Shown here piece by piece: positions 28,993 to 34,615 of a stretch of DNA of 42,650 nt. Made by a program: the position numbers and the translations under genes. The notes under the pieces are model-generated. The model was not told the DNA's origin. It worked only from the letters and a program-made list of their open reading frames with translations, and did no database searches. How positions within the stretch are numbered: position 1 is the stretch's first letter; each line of letters opens with the position of its first letter. The stretch spans positions 1 through 42,650 of the forward strand of contig JAEOTC010000148.1 in the NCBI GenBank assembly GCA_016840035.1. The letters are read 5' to 3'. The DNA is from Candidatus Hodarchaeota archaeon. Lineage in GTDB: Archaea; Asgardarchaeota; Heimdallarchaeia; Hodarchaeales; Hodarchaeaceae.

Positions 28993-29263
28993 GAATATTA
29001 CCTAGAACCGATTATATTGCAGAATTTAATAATTAATCATTTATCTTTTAGAATAGTTGCAGTAAATTACTTGTTTAACGCCTTTTGATAATTAGATAAC
29101 TCACTGGAATGAAAATGATGTAGTTTATGAGCTTTATCGGACCACTAAAATAATTTTAGTTAAAATCTCAAAATCCTTCTCATTGCTAGTCTTTCAAATC
29201 ACTACTTTCATTTTCGGCCTATCAAAAATCTTGAATACGCGATGGTTTTTTGGATACCTGAGG

Positions 29264-30505
29264 ATGACAGTGCTAATTATTGATTCCAGTAATTCAGGGG
29301 CGGCAGGAGATATGTTAATAGCCGCCTTATTAGATATATGCTCCGAAAAGCAACGCAATCAGTTTTGTGACACATTTACATCTAGTCTGATAAAACATGA
29401 TCCTCAATTTCAGTTACAATGGAAGAATGTCACAATTGAAGGATTTTCAGGAATACAGCTTGTCACAAATGCCAAAAAACGCTTCTCCCCCTCTGAATTA
29501 AACACAATTTTACATGATTCGAGTAATACACTTTTGAAAAAGGAAATTTCTATTCAACGAGCCATACAGGCTTTAAACCACCTCAAGAAAGCAGAAATGA
29601 AAGTTCATGGAATTGAAAAGGAGGATCATAAGCTTCATTTCCATGAATTAGCAACAATTGACACAATTCTCGATATTATTGGATTTTACTTTCTTTTGGA
29701 GTTACTTGAAGTAGAAATATCCAGTGTAAATTTATTGCCCATAGCTATAGGGGGGGGAAACAAAATTATTTCTCATGGACTAGTTTCTGTTCCCACACCT
29801 GCCACGAGCGAAATTATTAGAAGAGGAGAATTACCAATTCAAGGAGGTCCTGTGAATGGAGAGCTATTAACACCTACAGGTGCAGCTATCCTGGCGTCTT
29901 TACAGGCGATATCGATTCAATATTTACCAAGTATGACGGTAAAGAAAATTGGTCGAAGCTTTGGTACTATTCCTCCAGAGAATGGACAACAGCCTTTTCT
30001 AAGAATATTACTTGGAACTGAAAAATCTCTTTTGCACACAGAAGAGATTGTTACTCTTGAGACAAATGTTGATGATGTAGATGGAGAAACCATCGGGTAT
30101 CTATTCGATATACTCTTTCGGAAGGATTTGGTCTTAGATTTTATTGTAATTCATACAATCATGAAAAAAAATCGACCTGGGTATCTTCTTCAAGCTATTG
30201 TTGAACCTAGGAAAGTTCAGGAAGTGTCATTACTTCTAATGCGAGAATTGGGTACATTAGGTGTAAGAGCATTGTCAGGATTCAGACATATTATCCCAAG
30301 AAACTATACTACCCAAAAATTTAATGTTGGAGAGGGAATGAACGAAGTTAAAGTTAAACGTGGCTATTTTGGGGATGAAATGATTACCGAAAAGGTTGAA
30401 TATGAGGACTTAAAGCGAATTGCCCTCGAACAGGAAAAACCACTCCGTAAGGTTCGGAAGGATATTACTTCGGATATTATTAAGGAGAGTGAGACCAATG
30501 AATGA
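29264..30505 (+). CDS. larC: Nickel pincer cofactor biosynthesis protein LarC (nickel insertase)
   Basis: SGAAGDMLIAALLD, AEMKVHG, HFHE, HG-x-VPTPAT, GELLTPTGAA, ETNVDD, MKKNRPG, TLGVR and EYED. Start placed at MTVLIID. Confidence 0.93.
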   Translation: MTVLIIDSSNSGAAGDMLIAALLDICSEKQRNQFCDTFTSSLIKHDPQFQLQWKNVTIEGFSGIQLVTNAKKRFSPSELNTILHDSSNTLLKKEISIQRAIQALNHLKKAEMKVHGIEKEDHKLHFHELATIDTILDIIGFYFLLELLEVEISSVNLLPIAIGGGNKIISHGLVSVPTPATSEIIRRGELPIQGGPVNGELLTPTGAAILASLQAISIQYLPSMTVKKIGRSFGTIPPENGQQPFLRILLGTEKSLLHTEEIVTLETNVDDVDGETIGYLFDILFRKDLVLDFIVIHTIMKKNRPGYLLQAIVEPRKVQEVSLLLMRELGTLGVRALSGFRHIIPRNYTTQKFNVGEGMNEVKVKRGYFGDEMITEKVEYEDLKRIALEQEKPLRKVRKDITSDIIKESETNE

Positions 30506-31274
30506 TTTAGAAGAAATTTTAAGAAAAGTAAAAGAAGGAGAAATTGATATAGAAGATGCAATAAAGACAATCAATCTTTTTGGTCTTGATTTCGTTGGTG
30601 AAGGAGTAAAAATGGACACGAGCCGTCAAATTAGACGTGGAATTCCCGAAATTGTGTTTGCAGAGAGAAAGAGACCTCAAATGGTAGTTGATATTGTTTC
30701 TTCAATAATGGAGACTCAACAGATATGTCTCCTCTCACGTGTACTAGATAAACACTTATCTCTTCTGAAGAAGCAATTTACTCCGACTTATGATCTTGAT
30801 TTCTCTTCAGATTCAGAACCGTATACAGTTACAGTAAAGAGAAAAGATTATTCTCCCCCTGAACCCAGGCAGAATATTGGTATACTTACAGCTGGTTCCT
30901 CTGATATTCCAGTTGCAGAGGAAGCAGAGGCAATTGCTCGTATAATGGGTGTGGGGGTCATATCATATCATGATGTTGGAATTGCAGGAGTTCATAGGTT
31001 ATTTACACCTTTAAAGGAGCTTGTAAAGTACAATGTGAAAGTTGTCATTGTTGTAGCCGGAATGGAAGGCGCTCTTCCTGCTATTGTTTCAGGATTGGTC
31101 AGAGTCCCTGTAATTGGTGTACCTGCGTCTACAGGATACGGATATGGAGGAAAAGGAGTAGCTGCTTTGATGTCCATGCTTCAAAGTTGTTCTCCTGGAT
31201 TAGTTGTAGTGAACATCGATAATGGAATAAACGCTGGAGCTACAGCGGCATTGATTGCTAAACAAAGTAAATAA
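30498..31274 (+). CDS. larB: Nickel pincer cofactor biosynthesis protein LarB (PurE-like carboxylase/hydrolase)
   Basis: RRGIPE, AGSSDIPVAEEA, DVGIAGVHRL, AGMEGALP, PASTGYG, MLQSCSPG and VVNIDNG. Start at MNDLEE overlaps the larC stop. Confidence 0.94.
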   Translation: MNDLEEILRKVKEGEIDIEDAIKTINLFGLDFVGEGVKMDTSRQIRRGIPEIVFAERKRPQMVVDIVSSIMETQQICLLSRVLDKHLSLLKKQFTPTYDLDFSSDSEPYTVTVKRKDYSPPEPRQNIGILTAGSSDIPVAEEAEAIARIMGVGVISYHDVGIAGVHRLFTPLKELVKYNVKVVIVVAGMEGALPAIVSGLVRVPVIGVPASTGYGYGGKGVAALMSMLQSCSPGLVVVNIDNGINAGATAALIAKQSK

Positions 31275-32027: not shown

Positions 32028-32771
32028 TTATTTATATGTGGGTGAATAATCACATTTCGAACAGATCCACCTAGAGAAGGGAAGAATTAAATCATCTCTT
32101 CCTTCCTGTTCCATTTTTTCAGAATAAGGCAGGAGATGTCCTACCCCACATTCAGGACAGGGCGGAGTAGTTATTATACTTGTATCTTGAGGTATAAAAT
32201 TGTCAAGGGAAGTAATTTCTTGGGATCTACGAGGTTTGGGAGTAATCTTTTTTGTACTTGAGGTGGTTTTCTTCTGCTTGGTGGTATTCTTCTTTTTTTT
32301 CGCAGGTGTTTTTCGTGTGGGAGCTTTTCGAGTCGATTTCGCTTTAGATCCAGTTGTACTTGCTTTCTTTGTTGTAGCTTTAGTCTTTTTAGCTTTAGTG
32401 GTTATTTTTTTTGTCTTAGAAGATTTAGGCTTTTTTACTTTCTTATTTTCTTCCTGTCCCTCTGCTAGTTCTGGTACAAGTCCACCCTTTGGGATAGAAT
32501 CAATAGATTCCGTAAATTCCTTTGTTTCTTCACCTTGATCTATAGTCTGGACTCGATAGGTTAAACCATATATTCTCCTGATCTCAGTTGCAGCAGTAGA
32601 AGATATAAAACGAGTTTTGACAGCAGCACCTTTCCCTATCCAGATCCATATCTTTCTCTTTTCATCATCAACAATAATAAAAACAGATTTTGCCTTAAGG
32701 TCTTTAGGAGAAAATGCTACTGGATCCCAATGGCCTTCAGGAGTCACTGAGTATGCTACAAGTCGAGTCAA
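32028..32771 (-). CDS. Gelsolin-like domain protein with Lys/Thr-rich linker and C-terminal zinc ribbon
   Basis: Residues 1-90 (L-xx-SVFIIVD...IWIWIGKGA...A-xx-I...TIDQGEETKEF) fit the gelsolin repeat pattern. Residues 110-182 are a basic linker, followed by CPECG...WICSKC. Confidence 0.78.
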   Translation of the reverse strand: MTRLVAYSVTPEGHWDPVAFSPKDLKAKSVFIIVDDEKRKIWIWIGKGAAVKTRFISSTAATEIRRIYGLTYRVQTIDQGEETKEFTESIDSIPKGGLVPELAEGQEENKKVKKPKSSKTKKITTKAKKTKATTKKASTTGSKAKSTRKAPTRKTPAKKKKNTTKQKKTTSSTKKITPKPRRSQEITSLDNFIPQDTSIITTPPCPECGVGHLLPYSEKMEQEGRDDLILPFSRWICSKCDYSPTYK

Positions 32772-32883: not shown

Positions 32884-33489
32884 CTAAGAATCTCTGAGAA
32901 TTGCTCTCGTCCGAACAATAATTAAAGGAATATTCCTAATATCAACGGTTTTCTGATAGCGTATATGGGATTCTGTGTATTTGATTTTTTCACCAACAAG
33001 AAAATCGAAGACTCGCTTCTTTTCTGGATAATCCAGTGGTAGCGTAAGATAGAAATTCATTTCTCGAAGTAATAGCCCCTTCAAGGATGTGATTTTCCTA
33101 GTAATTCTGATGCTAGTATTCCCAATGTAGATTGTATACCCCCAAAAAGGAAAGAAGGATCGTCTTCCTTGAGCTTGTTTATTGATGAGTGTCTTAGAGA
33201 TTCCTAGACTTGATAATGCTGGGATATATGCAATAATGATTATGGAAGCAAATACGAGTGGTAATATGATCAAAGGTAAATTCATGACATAGAAGGAAGG
33301 ATTCATCAAACTTGCTTCGGCTCTATCAAATTCTTCAGTAATTGTTTGCGGGACAGTTCCTGATTCCGAAATAGTTAAGGAATTAATGTTATAAAACAAG
33401 ATAAGAGTAGATCCTGTGACAAAAAACGAGATTAATATTATGTAAATGAACTGACTCTGTCGAATACCTGAAATTGAACCGCGTAGCAT
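32884..33489 (-). CDS. Hypothetical membrane protein (two TM helices plus soluble C-terminal domain)
   Basis: Two hydrophobic segments. Lies 20 nt downstream of the wHTH gene on the same strand. Confidence 0.7.
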   Translation of the reverse strand: MLRGSISGIRQSQFIYIILISFFVTGSTLILFYNINSLTISESGTVPQTITEEFDRAEASLMNPSFYVMNLPLIILPLVFASIIIIAYIPALSSLGISKTLINKQAQGRRSFFPFWGYTIYIGNTSIRITRKITSLKGLLLREMNFYLTLPLDYPEKKRVFDFLVGEKIKYTESHIRYQKTVDIRNIPLIIVRTRAILRDS

Positions 33490-34117: not shown

Positions 34118-34615
34118 TTGAAGGTTTATTCAAAGAGAGTATTGGAAACTTTAGGAATGACGGTCAGCGAGGAGAAGGATCAGCCAATCAATTATGAAAC
34201 TGCGATTAAAGGTACAACGCTGGATGTCTATTTCTATTTATTAAGAAAAAAAGAAGCTGCGGGAGTTCGAGAAATACAACGTGGATTGGGGTTATCTAGT
34301 CCTAGTGTATCCAGTTATCACTTGGACAAATTAGAATCTTTAGGAGTTATCAAGAAAAACAGATTTGGTAATTTTGAAATTGCCAAAAAAGTCGATATCG
34401 GTGCGTTGAATCAGTTTATTCTGGTAAGAAATTACACACTTCCCCGATTTCTATTTTATGCGGTTTTTGTTTCCATTGTATTTATTGGTTATATCCTTTT
34501 CTTTTTTACTTTGCCCTTAACAACAGGAAAACTCTTCGCACTCATTTTTGGTGCTTTTGGTACAGGAATTTGCTGGATTGAAACCTATCTATCTTGGTTG
34601 AAACGTCCATTTTGA
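34118..34615 (+). CDS. Membrane-anchored winged helix-turn-helix transcriptional regulator
   Basis: GTTLDVYFYLL...GVREIQRGLGLSSPSVSSYHLDKLESLG wHTH, followed by PRFLFYA and two C-terminal TM helices. Confidence 0.82.
   Translation: MKVYSKRVLETLGMTVSEEKDQPINYETAIKGTTLDVYFYLLRKKEAAGVREIQRGLGLSSPSVSSYHLDKLESLGVIKKNRFGNFEIAKKVDIGALNQFILVRNYTLPRFLFYAVFVSIVFIGYILFFFTLPLTTGKLFALIFGAFGTGICWIETYLSWLKRPF

Follow-up and report, generated by a model that had tools for sequence, protein, structure and literature searches.

A gelsolin domain joined to a zinc ribbon by a polybasic tether in Hodarchaeales archaea

The window analyzed here, nucleotides 1–42,650 of contig JAEOTC010000148.1 of a Candidatus Hodarchaeota archaeon (assembly GCA_016840035.1), encodes a protein, gelsolin-Zn, that consists of one gelsolin domain, a long, disordered, lysine-rich tether and a zinc ribbon. 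The protein is a lineage-specific variant of the 1DGelX and 2DGel-Link-Zn designs described for Asgard archaea, and its overall design is known. The new details are the presence of one gelsolin domain instead of two, the polycationic character of the tether, and a YgiT/MqsA-like ribbon that is not clearly homologous to the zinc domain of the Loki protein. Asgard archaea appear to regulate actin mainly by profilins and gelsolins, and the Hodarchaeales are the proposed closest lineage to eukaryotes, with cultured strains that show actin filaments. The original prediction, made from the letters of the window, took this three-part architecture to be undescribed. That view has to be given up, since close forms have been published as 1DGelX (PMC7444086) and as a Loki 2DGel with linker and zinc domain (PMC9433394). 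We found no literature that unites gelsolin, Asgard and 'zinc ribbon', or that describes a Hodarchaeales gelsolin-Zn family. The gene and the parts of its product are as follows.

32028..32771, minus strand: gelsolin-Zn coding sequence (P0001), complete, 247 residues, TTG start and TAA stop, from the list of open reading frames (ORFs) and the translation
32472..32771, minus strand: gelsolin-homology domain of the ProGel/1DGelX type, residues 1–100, from Pfam, phmmer against PDB sequences, AlphaFold2 and Foldseek
32184..32471, minus strand: disordered tether, residues 101–196, with a polybasic K/T/S/A/P core at residues 110–182 (nucleotides 32226–32444)
32031..32183, minus strand: C4 zinc ribbon, residues 197–247, from conservation and the domain model

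An in-frame TGA lies immediately 5' of the TTG codon, and the use of this start is supported by orthologs, which begin at the equivalent residue with ATG (MTRLVAY...). A word-seeded search of 5.8 billion proteins returned 54 homologs, nearly all of them full length, with E ≤ 3.7e-39. The three-part architecture is retained across the 52 aligned homologs, where the conserved blocks are the WxG strand, the long helix of the gelsolin domain and the ribbon. Orthologs thus keep both the basic linker and the zinc ribbon, the loss of which the original prediction had named as grounds for abandoning it.

By the model, the N-terminal domain has a bona fide gelsolin fold. In an AlphaFold2 model of the full protein built on 52 homologs, residues 1–95 have predicted local distance difference test (pLDDT) scores of 80–89 and adopt the gelsolin topology, with β-strands at residues 4–9, 15–18, 30–35, 40–45 and 73–78 and helices at residues 51–68 and 84–91. 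The model and the Foldseek matches agree on the mixed β-sheet core with one long and one short helix that is characteristic of the gelsolin/cofilin fold. The best Foldseek match is Thor ProGel (7c2f_B, E 1.6e-7), with a template modeling (TM) score of 0.92 and a root mean square deviation of 1.1 Å (87 columns). Searched against the PDB, the model gives 97 matches at E ≤ 1e-3, and the best 50 of these 97 are all members of the gelsolin superfamily (gelsolin, villin, adseverin, fragmin and CapG). A phmmer search of PDB sequences finds Thor 2DGel3, Loki 2DGel and Heimdall 2DGel with E-values of 4e-6 to 2e-5. The Pfam gelsolin profile PF00626 matches residues 17–86 at 21.6 bits, a borderline score that passes the cut-off of 21, and a precomputed PF00626 match exists for 15 of the 54 homologs. 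Sequence identity to structurally characterized gelsolins, taken from the Foldseek alignments, is 17–29%. The gelsolin-repeat motifs on which the domain had originally been proposed (SVFIIVDD, KIWIWIGKG and DQGEETKEF) are all found in the translation, and the structural comparison called for at that time, with its match to ProGel, bears the proposal out.

Conservation within the domain is concentrated on the elements expected of a gelsolin. The WxG motif, which serves as the gelsolin signature in PMC9433394, corresponds to W44-I45-G46, and both W44 and G46 are invariant among the 52 homologs. Together with V51, F55, I56, S58, A61, I64, R65 and G69 they make up the invariant positions of the domain, and across the family conservation peaks in the WxG strand and the long helix at residues 51–68. 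It is this element that contacts actin in the structures determined for ProGel and gelsolin G1 complexes (PMC7444086).

The gelsolin head of the protein groups with the one-domain type that lacks calcium sites. It is 35–39% identical to the ProGel and 1DGelX paralogs encoded by the same genome and 22% identical to either domain of the 2DGel, and it shares with the former a helix start of the form V[KR]x[KR]F[IV] and the loss of the calcium ligands. In an alignment of the head with the two 2DGel domains of this genome, K28/S29 stand in place of the type II Asp, T53 in place of the type II Glu and R65 in place of the type I Asp, so that the type I and type II Asp/Glu ligands of calcium-regulated gelsolins are absent. 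This loss fits the published rule that Asgard one-domain gelsolins do not have calcium sites (PMC7444086).

The closest described design is that of Thor 1DGelX (Akil et al. 2020, PNAS, PMC7444086), in which one gelsolin domain is followed by a domain X that was modeled as a coiled coil. Thor 1DGelX needs no calcium for severing or nucleation and has a dissociation constant (Kd) of 7.7 µM for rabbit actin; in its authors' proposal, the extension gives it a further contact along the side of the filament. Like 1DGelX, gelsolin-Zn combines in a single polypeptide one ProGel-type domain that is devoid of calcium residues with a non-gelsolin C-terminal extension. The two differ, in a comparison by description only, in that the coiled-coil X of the Thor protein has its place taken here by a disordered polybasic tether and a C4 ribbon. 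Thor ProGel (7c2f), the best structural match to residues 1–95, likewise has no calcium sites, but it is a bare domain of ∼90–120 residues with no tail, and the Hodarchaeales genome carries ProGels of its own on other contigs.

The CPEC...CSKC zinc ribbon noted originally at the C-terminal end is present and, after the long helix, is the best-conserved part of the protein. Its consensus in the family is ITTPPCPxCxxGHLLPYS-(12)-LPFAKWxCSxCxYSP. Three of the four cysteines (C205, C237 and C240) are invariant and the fourth, C208, is found in at least 90% of the 52 homologs; the other invariant residues are T202, P203, P206, G211, L213, P215, S217, W235 and S238. When residues 193–247 are modeled alone (pLDDT 87), they form two long β-strands, a strongly conserved hairpin at the surface between two CxxC knuckles. 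The nearest shapes are YgiT/MqsA-type and rubredoxin-like ribbons, all of them weak matches (Foldseek against the PDB, E 0.26; VIA-align, Z ≤ 2.9; Atlas, TM score 0.5–0.6). The YgiT/MqsA ribbon (3hi2 and 3gn5) has the same succession of CPxC knuckle, long β-hairpin and CxxC knuckle, but its scores are weak (E 0.26, Z 2.7, TM score ∼0.5), homology is not detected, and gelsolin-Zn has neither the helix-turn-helix (HTH) domain nor a toxin partner gene nearby. No sequence search assigned the ribbon significantly to a family, and searches for a solved relative, with the single sequence and with the family profile, gave sub-threshold matches to the knuckles of eS31, rubredoxin and L37a and no match to Loki 2DGel. 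We therefore set aside any specific structural family and describe the module as a generic YgiT/MqsA-like or rubredoxin-like ribbon. The idea of a targeting module shared among Asgard proteins was also rejected, because the genome contains no second copy of the ribbon.

The second described design of this kind is the Loki 2DGel (MKD1-2DGel; Akil et al. 2022, Commun Biol, PMC9433394; PDB 7whg), in which two gelsolin domains and a linker of 69–79 residues precede a (CxxC)2 zinc domain at the C-terminus, whose loop carries a conserved tyrosine; its authors did not consistently find this zinc domain outside Loki. Both proteins thus start with a gelsolin head, continue with a non-conserved linker of ∼70–80 residues and end in a (CxxC)2 zinc domain that retains an aromatic residue. 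The heads differ in that the Loki protein has two calcium-binding gelsolin domains, whereas gelsolin-Zn has one domain with no calcium sites. The linkers differ as well: those of the Loki proteins are acidic (isoelectric point 4.6–4.7) or built of PEPVQV repeats (PMC9433394), whereas the Hodarchaeales linker is strongly basic. When the ribbon is compared with the zinc domains of two Loki-type 2DGel genes, the spacing between knuckles is 28 versus 30 residues and hhalign gives a probability of 52% (P 1.4e-4, 40 columns). The family ribbon profile does not retrieve 7whg_G at E ≤ 10, and the conserved tyrosine is placed differently, in LLPYS in the Hodarchaeales ribbon and in DYPRxYG in Loki. As judged from these alignments, the two zinc domains may be homologous or may resemble each other by convergence.

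The family is lineage-restricted, to Hodarchaeales by source names. Where the source of a homolog is named, the labels read Hodarchaeales, Hodarchaeota or Heimdallarchaeota, with one Hermodarchaeota. The survey of Asgard genomes proposed with the original prediction gives the same picture: in a family-profile scan of 301 genomes, matches to both head and ribbon occur solely in the window's own genus or family, in ∼18 of 21 genomes. Elsewhere among the 301 genomes the gelsolin head alone is matched, in ORFs of 280–340 residues that have other tails. Three apparent gaps within the genus are artifacts rather than counter-examples, because one falls at a contig end (G062) and two coincide with masked bases at the orthologous spot (G217 and G241). 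In the latter two genomes (L017, G217:C1:335000-341000, and L016, G241:C1:1945000-1951000) runs of N occupy the orthologous position and leave just the linker and ribbon of the gene readable; in G217 a small-GTPase ORF overlaps the expected position of the gelsolin head. The only sequencing runs listed as containing the stretch are DNA runs from marine sediment, with no RNA run among them.

A ribbon-profile search of 1.84 billion representatives returned fragments of the same family, stand-alone ribbons of 47–86 residues, and one distant relative, P0068. This protein of 199 residues, encoded on a JGI metagenome contig (L020:1083-1682), also joins a gelsolin domain to a ribbon, here through an acidic, Pro/Glu-rich linker. 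Basic charge is therefore not universal to the architecture. The neighbors of the P0068 gene differ from those in the window and resemble, by eye, ATP-grasp and ABC-permease genes. A stand-alone ribbon of 56 residues (P0063, L019:5001-5171) matches the family ribbon profile with an E-value of 2.6e-9, and its gene lies within ∼25 tiny co-directional genes of a kind typical of a phage or mobile element.

The linker between the two folded modules is unusual in composition. The AlphaFold2 model gives it no secondary structure, with pLDDT below 50 over most of residues 101–196 (101–122, 132–140, 151–155, 157–178 and 180–196). Residues 101–190 contain 28 K, 18 T, 9 S, 7 A and 5 P and carry a net charge of ∼+26. 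The counts given originally for the core were found to be exact: residues 110–182 comprise 73 residues, 32 of them K or R and none D or E, with a single TPAK motif at residue 155. In a six-frame scan of the 4.3-Mb genome for tracts with at least 20 K/R and at most 2 D/E per 60 residues, 13 ORFs pass, and just three of them, including gelsolin-Zn, have an acid-free K/T/S tract. Given this rarity and a proteome background of 10.3% K+R and 11.9% D+E, the tract is exceptional and not a product of chance composition. Among the homologs the linker is hardly alignable and varies from 46 to 94 residues in length, and its net charge is positive in 52 of 52 (+1 to +29, median +15). Charge is retained while length and sequence drift, as would be expected if selection acted on the charge. 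NCBIfam and Pfam matches within the linker (DNA polymerase III tau, sigma factor, mucin and others) were discarded as low-complexity noise.

Two other ORFs carry comparable tracts. One encodes aIF2-gamma (G000:C184:107591-109102, minus strand, L030; Pfam GTP_EFTU, GTP_EFTU_D2 and eIF2_C), which has an N-terminal extension of ∼90 residues that is K/T/S/A-rich and polybasic like the gelsolin linker, with 27 K/R and no D/E per 60 residues. The other (G000:C70:6042-7169, plus strand, L029) encodes a protein of 375 residues with a polybasic K/T/S N-terminus of ∼65 residues followed by an acidic stretch. It may be kleisin-like, judging from a sub-threshold match to the Rad21/Rec8 C-terminal domain (E 0.088).

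We consider it about an even call that gelsolin-Zn is a calcium-independent actin regulator in which the tail adds a second contact, with actin binding predicted from homology. This reading is favored because it is the most economical extension of the measurements made on this class of proteins. The gelsolin domain would use its long conserved helix to bind actin in the cleft that separates subdomains 1 and 3, and would do so free of calcium control, as do Thor ProGel and 1DGelX. The tether would add electrostatic attraction to a polyanionic surface as a second contact, most simply to the flank of the Lokiactin filament, and a domain that binds weakly by itself would thereby become a factor that severs, caps or bundles filaments while associated with their sides. 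The actin of this genome, with a net charge of −7, fits such a contact. The zinc ribbon would then serve as a protein-docking or localization module for some partner. The N-terminal domain of MqsA, the nearest structural analog of the ribbon, was solved with its protein partner MqsR (3hi2, title), which we count in favor of a docking role.

Several points weigh against a role of this kind. The first is that actin binding by gelsolin-Zn is a prediction from homology. The Pfam gelsolin score is barely over threshold, and the acidic linker of P0068 indicates that binding of filaments through positive charge cannot be the ancestral role of the tether. Eukaryotic actins have an acidic N-terminus. 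The N-terminus of the single actin of this genome reads MSLAEGITGK, which is unlike the eukaryotic one and weakens the electrostatic argument. The gelsolin fold is also found in proteins, Sec23 among them, for which actin binding is not known (PMC7444086). Finally, F-actin did not bring down the zinc domain of Loki 2DGel in co-sedimentation, and what the tail does was unclear to the authors of that study (PMC9433394).

The Sec23 precedent raises the alternative that gelsolin-Zn is an unrelated adaptor that uses the gelsolin fold for a purpose other than actin binding. The borderline Pfam score and the low identity to structurally characterized gelsolins noted above are compatible with this idea, as is the behavior of the closest structure, Thor ProGel, which binds actin weakly with a Kd of 337 µM (PMC7444086). 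On the other hand, the long helix and the WxG motif are conserved, every Asgard gelsolin-domain protein tested so far acts on actin (PMC7444086, PMC9433394), and five gelsolin homologs co-precipitated with Lokiactin in L. ossiferum. We regard a non-actin use of the fold as very improbable.

A further possibility, to which we give a minor share of credence, is that gelsolin-Zn is an adaptor between the Lokiactin cytoskeleton and something other than actin, either a polyanionic target such as the chromosome or RNA, reached through the tether and ribbon, or the membrane, reached through a co-inherited neighbor with two predicted transmembrane helices (the 2-TM protein, below). For the first of these targets, an SPKK-like tether, possibly together with the ribbon, would bind DNA or RNA non-specifically and link chromosome, plasmid or ribonucleoprotein cargo to actin monomers or filaments. 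The motif [ST]Px[KR] occurs 54 times in the linkers of the family, compared with 25 ± 4.6 in composition-preserving shuffles, a ∼2-fold enrichment among sequences that are mutually related, and [ST]P[KR] is likewise ∼2-fold over shuffles. Of the two other equally extreme K/T/S tracts in the genome, one belongs to aIF2-gamma and one to the protein with the sub-threshold Rad21/Rec8 match. The motif enrichment and these two tracts are the only hints, both indirect, of the tethering of actin to DNA, RNA or lipid that was originally proposed. The ribbon also resembles eS31/S27a and TFIIS/RPB9-type ribbons, weakly and below significance. Against a coupling to nucleic acid, no homology to any nucleic-acid-binding domain was detected and all ribbon matches fall below significance; polycations bind any polyanion, so that composition cannot discriminate between targets; the linker of P0068 is acidic; and the neighboring genes have no link to replication or segregation. 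We judge such a coupler to be quite unlikely.

The related description of the linker as histone-H1-like also reduces to a compositional resemblance. Like the C-terminal tail of histone H1, with its SPKK motifs, the tether is lysine-rich, disordered and free of acidic residues, and it contains motifs of the S/T-P-x-K type. It differs in being Thr-rich rather than Ala-rich and in lying between domains rather than at a terminus, and homology is not detected. The Pfam and PDB searches gave no match to the winged-helix globular domain of linker histones (GH1/GH5) at E ≤ 10, and the region is disordered in the model; the absence of this domain is a further point against a nucleic-acid coupler.

The gene is the last of a co-directional trio whose other two members are the following.

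32884..33489, minus strand: 2-TM protein gene, 201 residues, upstream of and co-directional with the gelsolin-Zn gene, with two predicted transmembrane helices and a conserved C-terminal domain of ∼100 residues
33510..33986, minus strand: weak-HTH protein gene, 158 residues, first of the trio, with an HTH_11 match at E 0.013

The transmembrane helices of the 2-TM protein were read from the sequence by eye, and the protein has no Pfam match even at E ≤ 10. Its gene is found in 18 of the 21 other genomes of the genus, directly beside the gelsolin-Zn gene wherever both coordinates are listed, and the same query gave no match in the 59 genomes that belong to the class but not to the genus. The two genes are separated by 112 nucleotides in the window and by ∼100–195 nucleotides, on the same strand, across the genomes with coordinates. 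The weak-HTH gene has counterparts, 50–85% identical, in 19 of 21 genomes of the genus and adjoins the 2-TM gene where coordinates can be compared. On the other side, a gene for a CxxCxxCC protein converges on the gelsolin-Zn gene and is followed by LarB- and LarC-like genes. The order of a block of ∼10 genes, including EMG1, an NTPase, LarB and LarC, is kept in three relatives (L009, L010 and L012), in which the gelsolin-Zn protein is 67%, 43% and 38% identical.

This arrangement bears on the remaining alternative, that gelsolin-Zn is a membrane-proximal actin regulator whose tether binds anionic archaeal lipids, whose ribbon docks on the cytoplasmic domain of the 2-TM protein, or both, for example in actin-filled protrusions. 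The 2-TM gene was found only in the genus that bears gelsolin-Zn and, wherever both coordinates are listed, lies directly upstream of it on the same strand. In the three genomes with no 2-TM match an intact gelsolin-Zn gene was likewise not found, the gelsolin gaps there looking artifactual. In eukaryotic gelsolin, polybasic stretches adjoining the gelsolin domains bind phosphatidylinositol 4,5-bisphosphate, and dynamic, actin-filled protrusions are seen in Hodarchaeales and Loki cells. However, the synteny of the ∼10-gene block, which contains unrelated genes, means that the adjacency may reflect shared ancestry; the 2-TM protein evolves fast (25–53% identity), so that its seeming restriction to the genus may be a detection limit; and P0068 has no 2-TM neighbor. 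A complex prediction for the ribbon and the C-terminal domain of the 2-TM protein scored 0.00, which is no evidence either way. A membrane-proximal role appears unlikely to us.

The wider actin toolkit of the genome is consistent with a modular design. Besides its one actin (G000:C289:26249-27355), the genome encodes at least six further gelsolin-domain genes, and in three of these the gelsolin domain or domains are followed by low-complexity linkers rich in Pro, Thr and Lys and by unrelated C-terminal domains. Paralogs with differing tails include the following.

G000:C122 (L007:916-1773), minus strand: gelsolin paralog of 285 residues with a Pro/Lys linker
G000:C2 (L008:781-1740), minus strand: gelsolin paralog of 319 residues with a Pro/Thr/Ser linker; adjoins a gene for a small Rab/Arf-like GTPase
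G000:C35 (L001:1084-2337), plus strand: 2DGel paralog of 417 residues with an acidic, Pro-rich linker

The differing tails point to a general plan in which an actin-binding head is joined by a tether to a targeting tail. Both papers by Akil et al. (PMC7444086, PMC9433394) raise the question of how a tail confers further functions on a one-domain gelsolin, and the gelsolin-Zn family offers a clean natural example, with its head, charge-conserved tether and highly conserved docking ribbon. The conserved neighbors and the genome-wide rarity of polybasic tracts provide specific, testable hypotheses, and the existence of cultured Hodarchaeales makes localization and pull-down work feasible. If the protein were to act as an adaptor, it would represent a precursor of actin–cargo or actin–membrane linkers built on a gelsolin head. 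If it modulates actin only, it is one more paralog of a known toolkit.

Two further features of the syntenic block deserve mention. At 29183-31274 on the plus strand, ORFs for a Ni_insertion (LarC-like, 440 residues) and an AIRC (LarB-like, 284 residues) protein, listed with an overlap of 86 nucleotides, are conserved beside the locus in the relatives and look like genes for synthesis of the nickel-pincer cofactor. At 34118-34615 on the plus strand, divergent from the trio and also kept in the block, lies a gene for a protein of 165 residues with an N-terminal winged helix (weak matches to HTH_20, TrmB and ArsR) and an apparently hydrophobic, possibly membrane-spanning C-terminal half.

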